From NCBI GenBank assembly GCA_040902515.1, contig JBBDXB010000006.1:574017-638016 (forward strand): a DNA stretch of 64,000 nt. The letters run 5' to 3'. Under the pieces are notes generated by a model that made no database searches, was not told where the DNA came from, and saw only the letters and a program-made list of their open reading frames with translations. How positions within the stretch are numbered: position 1 is the stretch's first letter; every line of letters starts with the position of its first letter. This document shows, in pieces, positions 1,224 through 9,499 of the stretch. This DNA comes from Patescibacteria group bacterium. Lineage in GTDB: Bacteria; Patescibacteriota; SICC01. Position numbers and translations under genes: made by a program.

Positions 1224-2927
1224 ATGCACATGAGTAACATCTTCAATCTGCGCTTTAGGCGCAAAAAGCTCTTCGTTGCCCTCGGCATGCTGCTGGCGCT
1301 CGCGGTCACTCCGCTGCTCCAGTCTTCGCAGGCCGCCGGTAACGTCATCATCGACAGCACGTTCTCGTCCCGGGTCTACAGCGGCCCCGGCGGCCCGACG
1401 GACTTCGCCGATACCACCACCGTCCGACACGGCAACGTGGTCCAGTATGGAATCCTGGTCCATAACGCCGAGGACGCCCGTTCTGGCGACAGCGCCAAGA
1501 ACTTCAAGATCCGGGTAACCATCCCCGACGCGTCCAACGGTTCTCAGGCCGTCAATACTGAGACCATCTCGGCCGATAACGGCCACTCCCCGGGAGCGTA
1601 CCGGAATACCGACACCACGACGCTGAAGTCGAAGGACGGTAAGCCGTTCACGATCACCGGTCTCCGCAACATCCAGTTGCAGCGGAACAACGTCCCCAAG
1701 ACGAACAACCCGACCTTCAACTGGAGCGCCCCGGAGAACATCCCGTACGAACGAGTAGAGGTCGAACGGAAGAACAACGCTTCCGTCCTGACGATTACGC
1801 CGACCAAGAGCGGCGACCTGGGACCGTGCTTCCAGAACGCGCTTCGGGTCATCTTCCTGGCTGACATCACCCAGGGGAAGCCTGGACCGCAGCTGGCGAT
1901 CGATAAGAAGGTCCGGAAGGCCGGAGAGACCAACTTCTCCGAAGCCAACACGATCAAGCCGAACCAGAACATGCAGTACTTCGTGGAGCTGAAGAACGTC
2001 GGCGGTGCTCCCGCCACGAACGTCGTGCTCCGTGACGCGCTGCCGCGACATGTCAAACTGATGCCGGGAAGCGTCCAGCTCCGGAGTTCGAGCAATACCA
2101 CGCTCAGACCCGGGCCGGATAACTTCGTGAACGGAGGAATCTCCTACGCGAGCTTCGGGCAAGGTGCCTGGGTCCAGGTGTACTTCAACGTTTCGGTAGG
2201 CGACCCCGGGGAGTGTCCCTGGTGGTTCAAGAACTTCGCACTCGTGAAGTCCGACCAGACCAACGGATCCGAGTTCTTTGACTCGGTGAAGACGGACCTG
2301 GTGTGCCAGCCGACACCGACACCGACTCCGACACCCACTCCTACACCTACGCCCACTCCGACTCCTACGCTGACGCCGACCCCGACACCGACCCCGACTC
2401 CCGAAGTCCAGATCGGTGATCTCCGGATCATCAAGTTCGAGGACCTCAACGGCAACGGTAAGGAAGACGAGGGCGAACCGCGGATGGCGGGAGTGACCTT
2501 CACGACCACCGGTCCGAGTGATTTCTCGAATACGTCACAGACCGACGAGAGCGGTGAGATCGTCCTCACGGACCTGGAAGAGGGTAGCTATACGGTGACC
2601 GAGACGGTTCCGCAGGGCTTCGAGGTGACCACGGAGAACCCGCAGACCAAGACGGTACAGACCGGTGAGACCGCGGAATTCTCCTTCGGCAACAAGCGCA
2701 TCGTGACGCCGACGCCAACCCCGACCCCGCCGACCGTCCAGACCCCGACTCCGGAAGCAACCCCGCCGGTGACGCCCCCGGGCGGCCCGAAGGGTCAACT
2801 GCCGGTGACCGGCGCCTCAGGCGCGGCTGGCCTGGCCACGATGGCCGTGGCGACCAGCGCGTACCTGTACCGCCGGGAACGGAACGCACTCGCTGAAGCG
2901 ATTCGTAACCATTCGGTAGACGGCTAA
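1224..2927 (+). CDS. Cell-surface protein with signal peptide, DUF11/Cna-B (SdrD B-like) type domains, Pro-Thr linkers and a C-terminal LPXTG sortase sorting signal (LPVTG + hydrophobic stretch + RRERN)
   Basis: Strong SD (aaggagg) 6 nt upstream of ATG; N-terminal MHMSNIFNLRFRRKKLFVALGMLLALAV signal; PTPTPT linkers; EDLNGNGKEDEGE...GSYTVTE Cna-B-like motif; LPVTGASGAAGLATMAVATSAYLYRRERN tail. Confidence 0.8.
   Translation: MHMSNIFNLRFRRKKLFVALGMLLALAVTPLLQSSQAAGNVIIDSTFSSRVYSGPGGPTDFADTTTVRHGNVVQYGILVHNAEDARSGDSAKNFKIRVTIPDASNGSQAVNTETISADNGHSPGAYRNTDTTTLKSKDGKPFTITGLRNIQLQRNNVPKTNNPTFNWSAPENIPYERVEVERKNNASVLTITPTKSGDLGPCFQNALRVIFLADITQGKPGPQLAIDKKVRKAGETNFSEANTIKPNQNMQYFVELKNVGGAPATNVVLRDALPRHVKLMPGSVQLRSSSNTTLRPGPDNFVNGGISYASFGQGAWVQVYFNVSVGDPGECPWWFKNFALVKSDQTNGSEFFDSVKTDLVCQPTPTPTPTPTPTPTPTPTPTLTPTPTPTPTPEVQIGDLRIIKFEDLNGNGKEDEGEPRMAGVTFTTTGPSDFSNTSQTDESGEIVLTDLEEGSYTVTETVPQGFEVTTENPQTKTVQTGETAEFSFGNKRIVTPTPTPTPPTVQTPTPEATPPVTPPGGPKGQLPVTGASGAAGLATMAVATSAYLYRRERNALAEAIRNHSVDG
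2308..2403 (+). repeat. Tandem hexanucleotide (ccgacN)n microsatellite encoding the (PT)n linker of the LPXTG protein
   Basis: ~16 near-identical ccgaca/ccgact/cctaca units in a row; encodes PTPTPTPTPTPTPTPTPTLTPTPTPTPTP. Confidence 0.8.
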
Positions 2928-3012: not shown

Positions 3013-4096
3013 ATGGAGCAGGAACTCCAGGAACGAATCGACAGCCTGGCGAAACGCTTTGCCCAGGTGAGGGAGTTTCTTTGACCTCGCCGGCAAAGAG
3101 ACCGAGCTAGCCGATCTCAAGAAACAGTCCGAGCGTGAGGACATCTGGCACGACCAGGAAGAGGCCCGGGCGGTGATGCAGCGGCTCAACGAGCTCGCCG
3201 AGCAGGTCGGGTTCTGGCAGCGATTCGAGCATGACCTCACCGACCTGCGGGAACTGCTGGGACTGTCCGGACAGGATGACAAGGCGGTGCGGGAGATCGC
3301 CACGAACCTGGGTGAGCTCGAACGCACGTTCACGCAACATGAATCGGCGGCGCTGCTCTCCGGCGAACACGACGCACGCCCGGCTCACGTGACGATCCAA
3401 GCCGGCGCGGGCGGGACCGACGCCCAGGACTGGGCGCACATGCTGGAACGGATGTACCTCCGGTTCGCGGAACGCCGCGGTTGGCGGACGGAGGTCGAGG
3501 AGCGTTCGGCGGGGGAGGAGGCCGGCATCAAGAGCGTGACGTTGCGGGTGGACGGCCCGTCGGCGTACGGGTACCTTCGGGGGGAATCGGGTGTCCATCG
3601 GCTCGTGCGGCAGTCGCCGTTCAACGCCAAGAGCCTCCGGCAGACCTCGTTCGCCCGGGTGGAGGTGCTTCCGGACCTGCCGTCACATGCCGTCGAGCTG
3701 GACGAGAAGGATCTGCGGATCGACACCTACCGAGCCTCCGGTGCCGGTGGCCAGCACGTGAACAAGACCGATTCGGCGGTTCGGATCACCCATCTGCCCA
3801 CCGGCCTGATCGCCCAATGCCAAAGCGAACGCTCCCAGGCGCAGAACAAGGAGGCGACGATGAAGATCCTCTACGGGAAACTCCTGGCGTTGGCCGAGAA
3901 GCAGCAGAAGGCGGATCTCCGGAAACTCGAGACCAGCGATACGGCGGCATGGGGAAACCAGATCCGCTCGTACGTCCTGCACCCCTACAAACAGGTGAAA
4001 GACCTCCGTACGCGTGTCGAACGGCCGGACCCGGACGCCGTGCTCGAAGGCGACCTCGACGACTTCGTGGAGGCGGAACTCCGGTTACCCCGCTAG
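3013..4096 (+). CDS. prfB: Peptide chain release factor 2, expressed via programmed +1 ribosomal frameshift (frame 0: 3013-3084 ending at in-frame TGA; +1 frame: 3083-4096)
   Basis: Frame 0 MEQELQERIDSLAKRFAQVREFL* ends at CTT TGA C, preceded by internal SD-like AGGGAG. This is the canonical RF2 autoregulatory frameshift site. Downstream frame carries SPF (RQSPFN) and GGQ (SGAGGQHVNKT) motifs. Confidence 0.9.
3070..3088 (+). promoter_or_regulatory. prfB +1 frameshift recoding site (AGGGAG-TTT-CTT-TGA-C)
   Basis: Internal Shine-Dalgarno-like AGGGAG 3 nt upstream of the CUU UGA C slippery/stop context, as in the E. coli prfB recoding site. Confidence 0.85.
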
Positions 4097-4471
4097 CAGG
4101 GCGGCGGCTTTGCCGACCACCTCGCTGGGCGTGAAGTTGGACTTGAGCAGGTAGTCGGCGGCACCGAGCGCCATTCCGCGGTCGATGTAGTCCTGGTCGC
4201 CGACGTTCGAAAGCAGGACGACCTGCACGTCCTTCGTTTCCGCATCCTGCTTCAATTCCTCGAGCACTTCGATGCCGCTCTTCTTCGGCATCATGATGTC
4301 GAGCAGGACGAGATCCGGGCCATGCTCACGGACCAGGGAGATTCCCTCGTCGCCGTCCAGCGCGTGGTGGATGTCATACCCCTCGCGTTGGAACTTTTGG
4401 ACATACATGTCCGCCAGGACGGAGTCATCTTCGATTAGGACGATTGTCTTTTTGTCTGTCATCGATTTCAT
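4085..4471 (-). CDS. Stand-alone CheY-like response regulator receiver domain protein (128 aa)
   Basis: MKSMTDKKTIVLIEDD...LVLLDIMMPKKSG...LLSNVGD...LLKS with phospho-acceptor Asp context (LLDIMMP), T/S and K residues. The ORF track's longer ORF is trimmed to the internal ATG that begins the receiver domain. Confidence 0.75.
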   Translation of the reverse strand: MKSMTDKKTIVLIEDDSVLADMYVQKFQREGYDIHHALDGDEGISLVREHGPDLVLLDIMMPKKSGIEVLEELKQDAETKDVQVVLLSNVGDQDYIDRGMALGAADYLLKSNFTPSEVVGKAAALLAG

Positions 4472-4516
4472 TCTCCCATGCGGGCAAGCGCATTGACAAA
4501 CTCCCGAAAAGATGTT

Positions 4517-5992
4517 ATGGTTAAGCAATTTATGGACACCACGATCATTGGTCTCGGGCTCCTGCTGGCGATCACAGCCATCGTCGTACTGACCGTGCGG
4601 ATCCGGGCGTTGGCCCGGCAGGTCCGTTCCCGGGAGCTCGCGGTCAAGCGGGACCTCGGAAGAATCCGACAGATCGACCGAATGCTCCTGGCGAACCTGT
4701 CCCTCGGATACATCGCCCAAGAAGTGGCGAACGTCTTCGCCGACCACCGGGCCGTGCTCGGCGGTGCCGTCCAGCGGGCCAACCGCGACGGTACGCTCGA
4801 GGTACTGGCCGTCTCGGAGGAACTCAAGCGGATGGGAAACCGGGGGCTCGGCGTGCTGGCGCACAAGGTGCAGAGCGGCATCGAGCTGGAACGCAGCGGC
4901 TCCCTGATCGTCCGGGCCATCAACCAGCGGCAGATCATGGTGGGCGAACGGCTGGGTGACGTGGACGTGCCCGCGCTTACCCCCGGACAGGCCGGCAAGA
5001 TCCAGAAGCGTCTGGGCATCCGGGGCGTGGCGATTTATCCGGTGATGGCCAACGAGCGGGTCTACGGCGCGGTGACGTACTACCTGCGATCCCCATACGA
5101 GAGCCTGGGAGAGCGGGACAAGGAAACGCTCCAGGCGATGACCGACGGCGTGGCTGTCGCGATGGTGAACGCCAGCCTGCTCACGGAGATCGATGCGGTG
5201 AACCAGCGGCTGACCCAGGCCAACGCCGGTTTGAAACGGGCGGACGAGACCAAGGATGAGTTCGTCTCGATCGCCTCGCACCAGCTCCGCGGACCGCTCA
5301 CGGCGATCCGCGGCTACCTGGCGATGCTCGAGGATGGTGACTTCGGTGCGATTCCTGACCGCCAGCGTCCCGTCGTGGAGCAGATCTCCGAAAGCACGAA
5401 CGAGGTAATCAACATCCTGAACGACATGCTTTCCCTCTCGCGGATCAATGCCCGGCGCTTCGAGCTGACCCCCAGTCCCGTGCGGCTGGAGGACGTGGCC
5501 CGCGACGTCACCCGGGAATTCGAGTCGTTGGCCAAGAAGAAAGGACTGAAGCTCATCCTGGAGCTGCCGGACCAGACGATCGGCCAACTGAATCTCGACG
5601 GTCTCCGCATCCGCCAGGTCATCGTGAACTTCGTGGACAACGCGATCAAATACACGCAGAAGGGAACGGTGCGGGTCTCGATCGCCCAAGAAGGCGACGA
5701 AGCGGTCCTTCGTGTCCGGGATAGCGGTATCGGTATCTCGGCGGAAGACCGGCACAAGATGTTCACCAAGTTCTTCCGGGCGGATAACGCCCGGAACGTC
5801 CTGGCGTCCGGTACCGGCCTGGGCCTGTTCGTGGCCCGGCGGATCGTGGAGGCGCATGGCGGAAGCGTCATCCTGGAAAGCATTCTCGGCAAGGGAAGTA
5901 CGTTCGGGTTCCGCCTGCCGCTTCCCGCGGTACGCGGCGGCCACGGCGCCGCGTACCGTCGGTCTGCCCGGACCCCGGCCGTCGCGAGCTGA
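4517..5992 (+). CDS. Sensor histidine kinase (TM anchor, GAF-like sensor, HisKA, HATPase_c)
   Basis: TM helix IIGLGLLLAITAIVVLTV; H-box SIASHQLRGPLTAIRGYLAML; N box VNFVDNAIKYT; G1 DSGIGI; G2 GTGLGL. Start assigned to the ATG at 4517 (MVKQF) because the 4478 start would abut the divergent RR start. Confidence 0.8.
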   Translation: MVKQFMDTTIIGLGLLLAITAIVVLTVRIRALARQVRSRELAVKRDLGRIRQIDRMLLANLSLGYIAQEVANVFADHRAVLGGAVQRANRDGTLEVLAVSEELKRMGNRGLGVLAHKVQSGIELERSGSLIVRAINQRQIMVGERLGDVDVPALTPGQAGKIQKRLGIRGVAIYPVMANERVYGAVTYYLRSPYESLGERDKETLQAMTDGVAVAMVNASLLTEIDAVNQRLTQANAGLKRADETKDEFVSIASHQLRGPLTAIRGYLAMLEDGDFGAIPDRQRPVVEQISESTNEVINILNDMLSLSRINARRFELTPSPVRLEDVARDVTREFESLAKKKGLKLILELPDQTIGQLNLDGLRIRQVIVNFVDNAIKYTQKGTVRVSIAQEGDEAVLRVRDSGIGISAEDRHKMFTKFFRADNARNVLASGTGLGLFVARRIVEAHGGSVILESILGKGSTFGFRLPLPAVRGGHGAAYRRSARTPAVAS

Positions 5993-7189
5993 TTACTGCC
6001 CGATATCGAGCTTCTTGCCGCCCCGGGCGGCCGCTTTGCCTTCGGATGAACCGGATGCCGCCTCGTCTTTCGCCGCGGCCTTGGGAAGGCTGAGGACGAA
6101 CGCATTGCCGGTATTGGTGCCGGTCACCGAGAACCGGGCGCGATGCGCCTCGATGATCTGCTGGGCGATGTAGTAGCCGATACCCTCCTCGAAGCCCTGC
6201 GCGCCGACGTAATCGAAGACGTTCTGCTGCTGGTCGCGGGCCAGCGGCGCTCCCTGGTTCTCGATCCGGAACTCGACTTCGGGATCCGTTTCCTGGAGGT
6301 TGAACGAGACCTCGCTCTTCGGAGCGGATGTCCGGGCGGCGGTGTTGGCGATCATCGAAAGCAGACGCCCCACTTCCGTGACATCCACCTCGATCTCCGC
6401 GTCCGTGCCCGGTTTGCCGGCATTCAGCGTTCGTGACGATTCGGCGACCGTCGTGGCGAGCTTGTCGGTGGCCTGCGTGAATAGCTCTTTCGCGGCGATC
6501 CGCTGCTTGCGTACGGCGATCTTCTCCTCGGAGAGGGTCTCGATCCGGGCCATGTCCTCGATGATCCGGAGCAGCTTGTTGGCGCTGTCCAGGATCGTCT
6601 GTACTTTGCTGAGCGCATCCTTGGGGAGCTTCCCGGCGTCTCCGGAAAGGAGCAGGTCGGCGTAGCCTTTCATGGCGGTGATCGGTGCCCGGAGCTCGAA
6701 CGAGGAGAGGTTCACGAGGCGCTTTCGGAGTTCCTTCTCCGCCTGTTCGGTCGTGGCGTCGACCAGGACCACCACGTGGTACCCGGGCGGATAGGTCAGG
6801 GAGCGTTTGGCGGCGTAGACCGGCGTCAGCGTACCGTCCTGCGCCGTGACCGTACCCTGGCGCTTGCGTTCGGTCAGCTTGAGCGGCTTGCCGCCACCGT
6901 CTATCGAAAGCACCGTCTCGAGCGGCTGATGGAACGACGAGCGGCCTTCCCGGCCGGTCATCGTCGCAAACGACTGGTTGGCATACTCGACGGTGCCCTC
7001 CGGGTCGACCAGGGCCACGCCCTCGTCGAGGTGCTGTCCGAACTCTTCCCAGAGCTTGAAGCGGTCGGCGGCTTCCTCGGTGGTCTGCTTGATCGCGTCC
7101 TGGGCGCCGGCCTGTCGGAACAGGGAACGGATCAGCAACACGAGGGTTACGAGGAACGCGGTGGCGAAGATGAACGTAAGCGTATCCAC
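5993..7189 (-). CDS. PAS-domain histidine-kinase-like protein with degenerate catalytic motifs (phospho-acceptor His replaced by Phe); GTG start
   Basis: N-terminal TM, PAS-like region (LVDPEGTVEYANQSFATMTGRE). HisKA-like block reads NLSSFELRAPITAMKGYADLL (F where the conserved H of SHELRxPLT sits). ATPase N/G boxes are degenerate (MIANTAARTS; IENQGAPLA). Converges on the kinase at 4517-5992 with zero gap. Confidence 0.6.
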   Translation of the reverse strand: MDTLTFIFATAFLVTLVLLIRSLFRQAGAQDAIKQTTEEAADRFKLWEEFGQHLDEGVALVDPEGTVEYANQSFATMTGREGRSSFHQPLETVLSIDGGGKPLKLTERKRQGTVTAQDGTLTPVYAAKRSLTYPPGYHVVVLVDATTEQAEKELRKRLVNLSSFELRAPITAMKGYADLLLSGDAGKLPKDALSKVQTILDSANKLLRIIEDMARIETLSEEKIAVRKQRIAAKELFTQATDKLATTVAESSRTLNAGKPGTDAEIEVDVTEVGRLLSMIANTAARTSAPKSEVSFNLQETDPEVEFRIENQGAPLARDQQQNVFDYVGAQGFEEGIGYYIAQQIIEAHRARFSVTGTNTGNAFVLSLPKAAAKDEAASGSSEGKAAARGGKKLDIGQ

Positions 7190-7282
7190 GCCGCCAGTCT
7201 ACAGGCCGCGGGCGCGCGCCACTAGTTCGGTGCGGACCCGCTGCTTTGCGGTCGGAGCCATGCGTCCGGCACAATGGAGTGG

Positions 7283-7366
7283 GCCGGGGTGGCGGAACTG
7301 GCATACGCGACGGACTCAAAATCCGTTGCCCGCAAGGGCTTGTGGGTTCGAATCCCACCCCCGGCA
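7283..7366 (+). tRNA. tRNA-Leu (anticodon CAA), class II with long variable arm
   Basis: Acceptor stem gccgggg/ccccggc, U8, anticodon loop cuCAAaa, variable-arm hairpin gccc-gcaa-gggc, T-loop gggttcgaatccc, discriminator A. Confidence 0.8.
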
Positions 7367-7406
7367 CCGTTTGCCGCCGGTCATCCGGCGTCGTAGGGTT
7401 AAATCG

Positions 7407-8216
7407 ATGGAGTCGCCAGAGGCCACGTACCAAGCACCCGCCCGTCCGCCCCGGCGCGATCCGGCCGACGTGCTGTGGCGGTTCGCGAAGGGTATCTTCC
7501 CGCTGGTACTGATCGGCGTAGCCGTGTACCTGGTCTTCAACTTTCCGGCGCTTTGGACGCGTCTGACGTTCATGGTCAGCAGCCCGGAGAGCGCTTCGGC
7601 GGCGACGTTGCCGGAAGTGGTGCGGACCGGAACCTTGCCGGGAGGTGGTGATGGTGCCGGTCAGGCCGGCGTGCCCTGCGAAGGGAACATCCCATACGAC
7701 GGCAGCGGTAACCCGCGCGCCATCTGCGACAACTACATTTATATTCCGCGTATCCGGGTAGCCGCACCGATCGTCCGTCCCGCATCCACGTCGGAAGCGG
7801 TGATCAACGACGCGCTCCTTCGCGGCGTGATCAAGTATCCCGGCACCGCCGACCCCGGCGAGAAGGGTAACCTGTTCCTGACCGGACACAGCTCTTACTA
7901 CTGGTGGGTGGATACCGACTATCGTAATGTCTTCGCCCTGGTTCCCGAGCTTCGCGTCGGTGACGAGATCGTGGTGTATCACCGGGGCAAACGGTATCTC
8001 TACCGCACCCACCGGACCTTCGAAGTCGCCCCCACCCACACCGACGTCCTGAAACCGACCCGTGAGTCGATGGTGACGCTCTCGACCTGCGTGCCGGTCG
8101 GTACGAGCTATCGGCGGATCATCATCCGAGCCCGGCAGATCAGCCCCGATCCGGCCACGAACGTGGCTCCCGGCGAATCAGCCGAAACGCCCGCCCGGCT
8201 GCCGGGTGTCCGCTAG
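7407..8216 (+). CDS. Sortase family transpeptidase (membrane-anchored)
   Basis: N-terminal TM (LVLIGVAVYLVFNF); catalytic His in LFLTGHSSYY; TLSTC Cys motif; conserved Arg in RRIIIRA. Candidate enzyme for the LPVTG substrate at 1224-2927. Confidence 0.8.
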   Translation: MESPEATYQAPARPPRRDPADVLWRFAKGIFPLVLIGVAVYLVFNFPALWTRLTFMVSSPESASAATLPEVVRTGTLPGGGDGAGQAGVPCEGNIPYDGSGNPRAICDNYIYIPRIRVAAPIVRPASTSEAVINDALLRGVIKYPGTADPGEKGNLFLTGHSSYYWWVDTDYRNVFALVPELRVGDEIVVYHRGKRYLYRTHRTFEVAPTHTDVLKPTRESMVTLSTCVPVGTSYRRIIIRARQISPDPATNVAPGESAETPARLPGVR

Positions 8217-8227
8217 GGAAAGAGTCG

Positions 8228-9499
8228 TCAGGAACCCCTGAGGTTGATCCGGACCAACCGTCCGCTCGCGCGATCGGTGACAATGATCGTATCCAGTCCG
8301 AGGATCGTCGGCTCACTGCCGATTCCGTCGGCCACCACCTGATCGTTGGTGCCGTCCCGGGCGATCACGTGAAGATCGCCGCCGCTGCGGTAGAGTAGAT
8401 GCGACCCGTCAGGGAGGGGATAAATCCGCTCCGGCGGATCGGTCAGGCGGGTAACCAGCCGATCCTTGCCGGATTCAAGGCTCAGCAGATGGAGTTCGCT
8501 CGTGGTGCGGTAGGCGAGATAATGCCCTTCATGGTCCGGTGCTGCTTGGACGAGCCCCTGTACGAGATTCCGATGGCGTTCGTCCCGGAGCAGACCGAAG
8601 GAGCCGTCACGGTCTTCAGCCACTACCGCATCCGGACCTATCGTCGTGAGGGCAGTCACTGTCCGGGTCTCCGGTATCCGCCGCCCCGTCCCGTCCGGCC
8701 GGATCCAAGTGACACCCAGTGCATCGAGGACATACAGCCCATTCTCCGCCGCGGCCCAGGCCCGCGGGGCCACGGCCACCGTCCTTGCGTCCGTGCCATC
8801 CGTATCCTGTACCCTGATCCGGTTGTTCCTGACGGTAAGTACGCGGCCGTCGACGAAGCGGCCGCTCGTCCCGGGCAGGTCTCCCACGCGCGACCCTTCG
8901 CGGTCGAATACGAAAGTGCGCTCGTTGCCGCTGAGCAGGATCCGGTTTCCGCTCCCGGTGACCGCCAGCGAGCGCGGTTCGGCCAGCGTGGCCGGCAGGG
9001 CCGTGATCGTACGGGACGTGCCGGCTTCCAGGTCGACGGACTCCAGCCGGTACCGTTCGTTATGTCGGGTGATCGCCACCGCGTGCCCGCCGCCGGCCGA
9101 GACCGCTACACGGCGGACGGTGCCTTCGGTAAGGAACGTCCGTTCCGGCGATTCCGGAAAGAGCGTGATGGATTCGATCACCGCTTCGCCGGGATCAATC
9201 CGGACCGTCTTCCGCCATGGCAGCCGATCGTCTTTCCGGACTTCCACATCGTACGTTCCCGGCCGGAGCGATATCCGTGCGTCCGTCCGTTTGCCGTGCG
9301 GCTCACCGTCGATCAGGATTTGCGCGGGATCCGGGTCCGACTGCAGGGCGAGCAATCCGCGCTCGTAGAGCGCGCCGGAATCAAAGTCGATGGCGTACCC
9401 CCGGGTGACCAGCAGTGCGACCGTCGCTCCCGTCAAGAACAAGACGAGCGTGAGTATGTAGACCGCGAATCGGGGCCGATAACGATGACGGGGAGACAT
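8228..9499 (-). CDS. Membrane-anchored hypothetical protein with PEGA-like domain and beta-propeller-like repeats
   Basis: N-terminal TM (FAVYILTLVLFLTGATVALLV); PEGA-like ILIDGEPHGKRTDARISLRPGTYDVEV; repeated G/D/R-rich beta-strand segments. Confidence 0.5.
   Translation of the reverse strand: MSPRHRYRPRFAVYILTLVLFLTGATVALLVTRGYAIDFDSGALYERGLLALQSDPDPAQILIDGEPHGKRTDARISLRPGTYDVEVRKDDRLPWRKTVRIDPGEAVIESITLFPESPERTFLTEGTVRRVAVSAGGGHAVAITRHNERYRLESVDLEAGTSRTITALPATLAEPRSLAVTGSGNRILLSGNERTFVFDREGSRVGDLPGTSGRFVDGRVLTVRNNRIRVQDTDGTDARTVAVAPRAWAAAENGLYVLDALGVTWIRPDGTGRRIPETRTVTALTTIGPDAVVAEDRDGSFGLLRDERHRNLVQGLVQAAPDHEGHYLAYRTTSELHLLSLESGKDRLVTRLTDPPERIYPLPDGSHLLYRSGGDLHVIARDGTNDQVVADGIGSEPTILGLDTIIVTDRASGRLVRINLRGS

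Follow-up and report, generated by a model that had tools for sequence, protein, structure and literature searches.

A predicted histidine pseudokinase encoded beside a canonical kinase and a stand-alone receiver in Saccharibacteria

To our knowledge, histidine pseudokinases are known from a few studied cases, such as DivL, RetS and PsmA, all of them in large-genome, cultivable bacteria. In DivL, from Caulobacter crescentus and other Alphaproteobacteria, the fold is HisKA/HATPase_c but the phospho-acceptor histidine is replaced by an aromatic residue. RetS, from Pseudomonas aeruginosa, combines a periplasmic sensor with two receiver domains in one hybrid protein, and is not encoded beside its target. 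PsmA, from the Streptomyces polarisome, binds DivIVA and is likewise a hybrid, whose parts include a receiver domain and a disordered linker of some length (PMC12963549). Here we describe a gene from a Patescibacteria group bacterium, located at 5993..7189 on the minus strand of a stretch of 64,000 nucleotides (contig JBBDXB010000006.1 of assembly GCA_040902515.1, positions 574,017 to 638,016; hereafter the window). Its predicted product has the domains of a histidine kinase but carries a phenylalanine, Phe164, at the phospho-acceptor position. We conclude with high confidence, from sequence comparison and structure prediction, that the gene encodes a catalytically dead histidine-kinase homolog, that is, a histidine pseudokinase.

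We aligned seven members of the family with 120 canonical kinase modules taken from search matches, and compared their motifs. Phe164 aligned with the phospho-acceptor histidine of VicK, SrrB and HK853 in HMMER alignments, and this position is a histidine in all 120 canonical modules. The replaced histidine in the H-box SFELRAPIT, as read in a preliminary description of the window, is confirmed. Four residues further along (H+4), the family has an invariant alanine, Ala168, where the canonical modules have Thr (102 of 120), Ser (11), Ala (3) or Asn (3). HisKA kinases act as phosphatases through an E/DxxT/N motif next to the histidine, as set out in the PsmA report (PMC12963549), and the pseudokinase sequence E165-L-R-A168 does not fit this motif. 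Since three canonical modules also have alanine at H+4, we take Ala168 as supportive of phosphatase loss and not as proof.

The ATP-binding site has lost its characteristic residues. In the N-box, Met279 takes the place of the first Asn (109 of the 120 canonical modules), Thr283 that of the Mg-binding Asn (113 of 120) and Arg286 that of the Lys (96 of 120). Asn282 lies one residue before Thr283, and a 10-sequence alignment placed it on the catalytic Asn; we set this placement aside, as the 127-sequence alignment and the HMMER pairwise alignments give Thr283, although the register here is ambiguous. The G1 box reads NxGxP rather than DxGxG, with Asn311 in place of the Asp (115 of 120) and Pro315 in place of the second Gly (112 of 120), while Gly313 is kept. 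The residue before the G2 box is Glu335, compared to Thr or Ser in 96 of 120, and the ATP lid between the F-box and G2 is approximately 6–11 residues shorter than in canonical kinases. Phe325, Gly336, Gly338, His349 and Gly361 are retained. The degenerate G1 box had been noted in the preliminary description, and the loss of the N-box and the short lid are found in addition to it.

In GHKL domains, the adenine amino group forms a hydrogen bond with the G1 Asp, and Mg2+ is held by the N-box Asn. With both residues lost, the protein is predicted not to bind ATP. The missing acceptor histidine, Mg-binding Asn and adenine-binding Asp, together with the shortened lid, thus point to a protein that is predicted to be unable to autophosphorylate and that most likely does not bind ATP. 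No alternative phospho-acceptor histidine was found in the dimerization and histidine-phosphotransfer (DHp) domain of the window protein, and none is conserved in this domain across the family. [quoted passage not shown]

The open reading frame (ORF) of the pseudokinase has a GTG start and is intact over 398 amino acids. Three Pfam families matched above their gathering scores: HisKA (34.8 bits), HATPase_c (34.5 bits) and PAS_8 (23.2 bits, cut-off 21.8). An AlphaFold2 (AF2) model, built on 31 family sequences with a mean predicted local distance difference test (pLDDT) score of 77, contains a long N-terminal helix (residues 3–51) that starts with the hydrophobic anchor, a PAS-type sheet (57–144), a two-helix DHp domain (146–181 and 190–221), a CA domain (229–370) and a disordered tail. 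The best Foldseek matches of the model in the PDB were the PAS-linked kinases WalK, YF1 and VicK; CpxA, HK853 and RetS matched its DHp-CA part. The PAS-like and dimerization regions, which the preliminary description had regarded as retained, are therefore recognizable in both profile and model. The protein lacks an extracytoplasmic domain and a receiver domain, as judged by Pfam and the AF2 model. The features of the gene are as follows.

5993..7189, minus strand: pseudokinase gene, encoding an anchor, PAS, DHp, degenerate CA and low-complexity tail (ORF, Pfam, AF2 model and 30 homologs)
7118..7180, minus strand: predicted N-terminal membrane anchor, residues 4–24, LTFIFATAFLVTLVLLIRSLF, read from the sequence, with approximately 3 residues outside the membrane
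7022..7117, minus strand: juxtamembrane helix, residues 25–56, RQAG.QDA...LWEEFGQHLDE
6758..7021, minus strand: cytoplasmic PAS domain, residues 57–144 (PAS_8, five-stranded AF2 sheet, Foldseek)
6527..6754, minus strand: DHp domain, residues 146–221, with helix 1 carrying SSFELRAPITAMKGY (HisKA at 34.8 bits, AF2 helices)
6698..6700, minus strand: Phe164 codon TTC, at the phospho-acceptor His position (alignments)
6686..6688, minus strand: Ala168 codon, at H+4, the site of Thr/Asn in the E/DxxT/N phosphatase motif (alignments)
6080..6505, minus strand: degenerate CA (HATPase_c) domain, residues 229–370 (HATPase_c at 34.5 bits, motif comparison)
6329-6355, minus strand: N-box MIANTAART, within the CA domain
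6245-6259, minus strand: G1 box NQGAP, within the CA domain
6170-6217, minus strand: F-box, short lid and G2, FDYVGAQGFEEGIGYY, within the CA domain
5996..6079, minus strand: variable Ala/Lys/Pro-rich C-terminal tail, residues 371–398 (family alignment; pLDDT below 50)

The ATP-lid residues 328–335 have low pLDDT in the model. The tail is of low complexity and ranges from approximately 10 to 100 residues across the family; the closest relatives end in K-K-x-D-I-x, which might be a short linear motif.

We searched 5.8 billion proteins and found 30 relatives at 43–91% identity, the named ones coming from Patescibacteria or unclassified metagenome-assembled genomes. F164, L166, R167, A168, P169, T171, A172 and G175 are invariant across the 31 family sequences, and N311 and P315 are at least 90% conserved in the family alignment. 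The Phe164 codon is TTC in 15 and TTT in 2 of 17 loci, and the codons on either side of it, for Leu, Ser, Arg and Ala, show free synonymous variation. In the two comparisons with unsaturated synonymous sites, the ratio of nonsynonymous to synonymous substitution rates (dN/dS) was 0.084 and 0.096 for the pseudokinase, 0.19 and 0.13 for the neighboring canonical kinase, and 0.04 and 0.08 for the receiver. The pseudokinase gene is under purifying selection and is not decaying. Thus, a kinase fold, the loss of catalytic residues and selection on the gene, the marks of a histidine pseudokinase, are found together. With replacement residues that are invariant or nearly so, the pseudokinase reading of the preliminary description holds.

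A profile search of 1.84 billion representative proteins turned up no close relative carrying His. Scores dropped from 599 bits, for a family member, through fragments, to approximately 200 bits, where the next matches were ordinary His-bearing tandem kinases, so that the family stands isolated. The preliminary description had named two observations that would speak against it, and neither was made: orthologs with His at position 164 were not among the matches, and no alternative conserved His is present in the DHp domain. The top non-family matches (approximately 1240 residues, 160–200 bits) were rejected as relatives, being tandem double kinases with a normal His in which the two modules sum to give the score. 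In five of these tandem kinases, all from other organisms (P0055, P0072, P0075, P0078 and P0117), the second H-box is normal but the first is degenerate, reading SSDLKKPLS or, in P0117, TFDLKKPLS, so His-less modules, including a His-to-Phe change, also occur inside larger kinases.

We measured conservation per segment as the mean frequency of the top residue over 30 full-length sequences. The highest value in the pseudokinase is that of DHp helix 1 (0.87), followed jointly by the juxtamembrane helix and the G1-F-lid-G2 stretch (0.81 each), then the N-box helix (0.71), DHp helix 2 (0.69), the PAS core (0.60), the first part of the CA domain (0.41) and the tail (0.27). The G1-lid-G2 stretch contains invariant, family-specific residues, Q321, N323, D326, G329, G332, E335, G336 and G338. 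This high conservation indicates that the degenerate pocket is not relaxed, and instead has been rebuilt with family-specific invariant residues as a surface in use. DHp helix 1 and the G1-lid-G2 stretch together form the surface that is contacted by response regulators in canonical complexes and in the DivL model. The juxtamembrane helix is a candidate output or partner surface. The source databases label members of the family as 'PAS domain-containing protein', 'ATP-binding protein' or 'histidine kinase', and these labels overstate what the proteins can do.

The pseudokinase is encoded beside two other signaling genes and a tRNA gene.

4478..5992, plus strand: canonical membrane-anchored GAF-HisKA-HATPase_c kinase (GAF-kinase), true start probably the ATG at 4532 (Pfam, orthologs)
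4085..4471, minus strand: stand-alone receiver, a single-domain response regulator of 128 amino acids (Response_reg at 81.5 bits, no output domain)
7283..7368, plus strand: tRNA-Leu(CAA), 93 bp upstream of the pseudokinase start, in divergent orientation (ARAGORN)

The TGA stop of the GAF-kinase (5990-5992, plus strand) directly abuts the TAA stop of the pseudokinase (5993-5995, minus strand), with an intergenic distance of zero. The GAF-kinase scores 60 bits for HisKA and 103 bits for HATPase_c, and its H-, N-, G1-, F- and G2-boxes are intact, as they are in 8 orthologs. The canonical kinase with an intact H-box (SHQLRGPLT), the zero distance and the divergent stand-alone receiver are all as the preliminary description had them. 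In both the GAF-kinase and the pseudokinase, one N-terminal membrane anchor precedes the cytoplasmic domains. In the receiver, the DD acidic pocket, the phospho-accepting Asp in LLDIMMP, the Ser/Thr and the Lys are all conserved across loci, and its sequence is closest to the receivers of PhoB and YycF (WalR).

The gap between the receiver and the GAF-kinase (4472-4531) holds sigma-70-like promoter matches in opposite directions, at 4493-4521 on the plus strand and 4499-4470 on the minus strand. The plus-strand match lies inside the longest ORF of the kinase and, taken with the N-termini of homologs, indicates that the kinase probably starts at the ATG at 4532. A terminator scan found no terminator-like hairpin in 3900-7600, which includes the convergent junction. 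As the 3' ends abut or overlap and lack such a hairpin, antisense overlap between the transcripts of the convergent pseudokinase and kinase genes is probable, and this might couple the expression of the two genes.

We considered whether the H-box of the GAF-kinase, SHQLRGPLT, was a second anomaly and rejected this, as Gln is present at H+1 in 38 of 229 background H-boxes (17%) and HQLR kinases are widespread. Kinases with the H-box SHQLR(T/S/G)PLTA, seen in metagenome loci L019-L098, are a large and widespread group, many of them of approximately 540 or 730 residues. The Gln at H+1 is therefore a trait of this subfamily and not a defect of the neighboring kinase.

Genome records assign the hosts to Candidatus Saccharibacteria or Saccharimonadia, and the family is confined to a clade of Saccharimonadia. 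One contig (JANWJF010000001.1), at 809,772 bp, is near to a whole genome of the group. The gene order is fixed and runs ATP synthase beta/epsilon, PEGA-domain protein, sortase, tRNA-Leu(CAA), pseudokinase, GAF-kinase, receiver, prfB and LPXTG-type surface proteins. The pseudokinase, GAF-kinase and receiver occur together in 15 of 16 distinct loci, and in ten loci the 3' ends of the pseudokinase and kinase genes are −44 to +20 bp apart. The tRNA-Leu(CAA) gene lies divergently just upstream of the pseudokinase in all 11 related loci that we examined for this arrangement (L001, L004, L007, L008, L010, L013, L014, L016, L017, L018 and L100), with a gap of essentially 0 bp in L018. With starts so close, both genes must be controlled from one very short shared stretch.

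We identified 20 ortholog clusters of the GAF-kinase, after which scores drop sharply from 366 to 253 bits. Most of these clusters are apparently on contigs that also bear the pseudokinase, and two orthologs on further contigs likewise have a convergent, Phe-bearing pseudokinase. A metagenome scan with the GAF-kinase alignment gave only distant HQLR-type kinases (at most 43% identity, in the core only), none of them beside a His-less kinase. From the protein search and the two further loci, the GAF-kinase appears to be no more widespread than the pseudokinase, which implies that the three genes form one inherited module. The exception is a single lineage, represented by L014, from a GTDB genome (CAYSOT01), and by L015, which comes from an independent sequencing run; in this lineage there is no GAF-kinase at the locus. 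Here, the receiver follows the pseudokinase by 46 bp on the same strand (L014 6001-7666; L015 1209-2874). Helix 1 of this pseudokinase reads NLATFQLRAP..MRGY, with the changes S162A, S163T, E165Q and K174R at otherwise invariant positions.

Genes for a surface protein, a sortase and a PEGA-domain protein always accompany the cassette, and the genes that flank it in the window have features of their own. The prfB gene for release factor 2 (3014-4096, plus strand) has the classical programmed +1 frameshift site CTT TGA C at 3079-3085, preceded by a Shine-Dalgarno-like AGGGAG, and the listed ORF of 307 amino acids from 3173 is the post-frameshift part. A large surface protein gene (1224-2927, plus strand) encodes Pro-Thr repeats, a DUF11 repeat, an LPVTG sorting signal, a hydrophobic stretch and RRER, and a terminator-like hairpin lies 3' of it at approximately 2951-2979. 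On the other side of the cassette are the genes for the sortase (7407-8216, plus strand), which is nearest to class E with a score below the cut-off, and for the PEGA-domain protein (8228-9499, minus strand).

From the fold, the residue losses, the selection, the distribution and the synteny, we infer a binding partner and an output for the pseudokinase. We tentatively propose that it is a DivL-like, non-catalytic docking receptor for the phosphorylated receiver, a role that we hold to be possible rather than probable. In this scheme, the GAF-kinase would phosphorylate the stand-alone receiver, which would then dock on the surface formed by DHp helix 1 and the short lid of the pseudokinase, as DivK~P does on DivL in Caulobacter. 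Docking would alter the conformation of the PAS and juxtamembrane regions, and the part comprising the PAS domain, juxtamembrane helix and membrane anchor would relay the signal to some membrane partner.

Lacking an output domain, the receiver needs some protein as its target. The pseudokinase is the only other constant, co-located signaling protein beside the receiver, and is kept even where the kinase is absent from the locus. R167 (H+3), T171 (H+7) and Y176 (H+12) of the pseudokinase match R553, T557 and Y562 of DivL. The DivL substitutions R553A, T557N and Y562A disrupt DivK binding, and DivL Y550F still binds DivK~P (PMC4211667). The pseudokinase and the neighboring kinase have in common a helix-1 signature of T, A, G and Y at H+7, H+8, H+11 and H+12, which is found in 16 of 229 background H-boxes. 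Both proteins also change to Ser at H+14 in the clade where helix 1 of the receiver changes. The approximately 16 loci fall into two clades and give no statistical power for column co-variation, so this H+14 change is the only one that we report.

Several points weigh against a docking receptor. Conservation and synteny are the basis on which the receiver is assigned as partner. HisKA domains in general often carry the helix-1 residues that the pseudokinase shares with DivL and with the neighboring kinase, so these residues discriminate weakly; the four-residue signature occurs at a background of 7%, in a set that is already biased towards similarity. The kinase of L014 and L015 may sit elsewhere in the genome, as the sequence examined spans 13 kb out of 64.6 kb of the contig. 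All of the N-, G1-, F- and G2-boxes are preserved in DivL, which has several PAS domains, unlike the pseudokinase, so that the analogy to DivL would be one of function and not of family membership. A downstream target, for example a CckA-like kinase, did not turn up, and there is no other kinase or receiver in the 64-kb window.

Next to the docking receptor, we considered a RetS-like modulator, the idea of the preliminary description, which we regard as unlikely but as the strongest of the alternatives. Here, the DHp domain of the pseudokinase would pair with that of the GAF-kinase, forming a heterodimer or disrupting the homodimer, and so tune autophosphorylation to the PAS input. The convergent arrangement, with 3' ends that abut or overlap in 15 of 16 distinct loci, is consistent with such a pairing, as are the single N-terminal anchors, which would co-localize the two proteins, and the GD.G loop and similar helix-1 residues shared by their DHp domains. 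GAF-kinase orthologs were not found outside pseudokinase-bearing contigs in the protein search and the two extra loci. There is also a precedent, in that RetS blocks GacS by disrupting the dimer interface of the GacS DHp domain, as described (PMC8498467). However, the L014/L015 lineage keeps the pseudokinase and receiver without a GAF-kinase at the locus. Moreover, much of the four-helix-bundle interface is made up by DHp helix 2, whose conservation (0.69) falls below that of helix 1 (0.87), on which regulators dock. The pseudokinase and kinase are distant relatives (approximately 50 bits), rather than recent duplicates that would naturally retain dimer compatibility, and a RetS-like role leaves the strict conservation of the degenerate lid region and of Phe164 unexplained. 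Docking of the receiver is therefore better supported than a heterodimer with the kinase.

A receiver sink or phosphatase would account for the pseudokinase-receiver pairing in L014 and L015 equally well. Such a protein would sequester the receiver or speed its dephosphorylation, in the manner of PleC or of a buffer, with no output of its own; this appears improbable to us. The regulator-docking helix is kept, as is Glu165 at H+1. Some phosphatase activity can persist in bifunctional HisKA kinases that have lost the histidine, as in the His243 mutants of EnvZ. Yet the E/DxxT/N motif requires Thr or Asn at H+4, where the family has an invariant Ala, an argument that is not absolute given the 3 of 120 canonical modules with Ala, and even Glu165 is changed to Gln in L014. 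A pure sink would also need no strongly conserved juxtamembrane helix, membrane anchor or PAS domain.

It is very unlikely that the pseudokinase is instead an altered enzyme, in which a pocket reshaped by N282, N311, P315, E335 and the short lid would bind another nucleotide or ligand, either as a sensor or to phosphorylate a non-canonical residue. N282 lies one position before the lost Mg-binding Asn, and the G1-lid-G2 stretch, with its family-specific invariant residues, is among the most conserved parts of the protein, although a protein-docking surface explains the same conservation more simply. None of the residues on which GHKL domains are known to depend for Mg-ATP binding is kept, the lid is short and modeled with low confidence, and the DHp domain has no conserved His, nor is any other conserved acceptor evident. 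Finally, a sequencing error, strain-specific mutation or incipient pseudogene, as might be suggested by Pfam scores of approximately 35 bits compared to 60–103 for the neighboring kinase, is refuted to near certainty by the Phe in all 31 protein clusters and in 17 loci of independent assemblies, the intact reading frame and a dN/dS below that of the canonical neighbor.

The docking receptor can be extended to the whole cassette, although we consider this step doubtful. The three proteins would then constitute a self-contained 'reverse-signaling' circuit, comprising a kinase, a free receiver and a dead-kinase effector, without a transcription factor. The pocket and juxtamembrane helix of the pseudokinase would directly control a membrane process, for example the flanking sortase/LPXTG machinery. 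In a sharper version of this proposal, the remodeled CA pocket (N282, N311, P315 and E335) would bind a ligand other than ATP. With conserved genes for a sortase and LPXTG adhesin-like proteins on its flanks, the cassette may have some connection to the cell surface of an episymbiont. If the reverse-signaling proposal were true, the pseudokinase would be the output device of a two-component system and would have evolved independently of DivL.

The hosts are ultra-small, host-dependent Saccharibacteria, in which the pseudokinase most likely reads or shapes a signal rather than generating one. A literature search, within the library that it covered, found no paper linking Patescibacteria or Saccharibacteria with a pseudokinase. 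Strong selection maintains the family although the genomes are well below 1 Mb in size and retain little DNA that could be dispensed with, and the pseudokinase is packaged with its presumed kinase and receiver, such that the whole circuit could be rebuilt from three small genes. It therefore offers a compact test of whether 'reverse signaling', in which a dead kinase reads a phosphorylated receiver, is general and not a peculiarity of Caulobacter.

We compared the pseudokinase to the systems that it most resembles. Among curated families, the PhoR/WalK/PnpS-type kinases were the best matches and have the same layout of anchor, cytoplasmic PAS, DHp and CA domains. The NCBIfam scores are far below the cut-offs (WalK, 91.8 versus 725; PnpS, 84.8 versus 400; PhoR, 73.9 versus 334). 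Unlike these systems, the pseudokinase is missing the catalytic residues and the receiver has no DNA-binding domain. The likeness of the receiver to those of PhoB and YycF would fit descent from a PhoR/WalK-type pair.

PsmA also has PAS domains, and shares with the pseudokinase, which is not its ortholog, a HisKA-like core without the His or the E/DxxT/N motif, degenerate ATP-binding motifs and a predicted lid that is incompatible with ATP (PMC12963549). It differs in its hybrid architecture, with the disordered linker and receiver domain, in its binding of DivIVA and in the residue at the His position, which varies between species (E, D, Q, V or Y; PMC12963549). The Phe of the pseudokinase family does not vary, implying a need for the Phe side chain itself.

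RetS is a kinase-fold protein, as is the pseudokinase, and acts by protein contacts rather than by phosphotransfer, inhibiting GacS via the DHp domain; the two are not orthologs. Its kinase region superimposes on the DHp-CA part of our model with a template-modeling (TM) score of approximately 0.68–0.69, normalized to RetS. The hybrid architecture of RetS is not shared by the pseudokinase, which has no receiver or extracytoplasmic domain, and the kinase-less variants of the locus argue against a purely kinase-directed role such as that of RetS.

DivL resembles the pseudokinase in several respects. It too combines the HisKA/HATPase_c fold with an aromatic residue at the His position, Phe164 aligning on Tyr550, and works alongside a canonical kinase and a single-domain receiver, with one or more PAS domains upstream of the DHp domain. 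The ATP lid of DivL is equally short, with one single-residue gap to the pseudokinase, whereas VicK and SrrB need insertions of 4–6 residues. DivL (4q20) ranked third among all PDB sequences against the family profile, although it is no ortholog, since ordinary kinases, SrrB among them, score in the range of its 78 bits. DivL, which acts on CckA, contains several PAS domains, while the pseudokinase has one PAS domain and a membrane anchor. Also unlike DivL, all three genes are in one cassette and the host is a Saccharibacterium. The pseudokinase represents a new family, narrow in its distribution, within a kind of protein that is already known, independently evolved in a minimal genome. DivL retains intact N-, G1-, F- and G2-boxes along with its Tyr, whereas the pseudokinase has Phe and a destroyed N-box and G1 box; the invariant Phe and the destroyed ATP site would separate a docking role from residual catalysis more cleanly than is the case in DivL.

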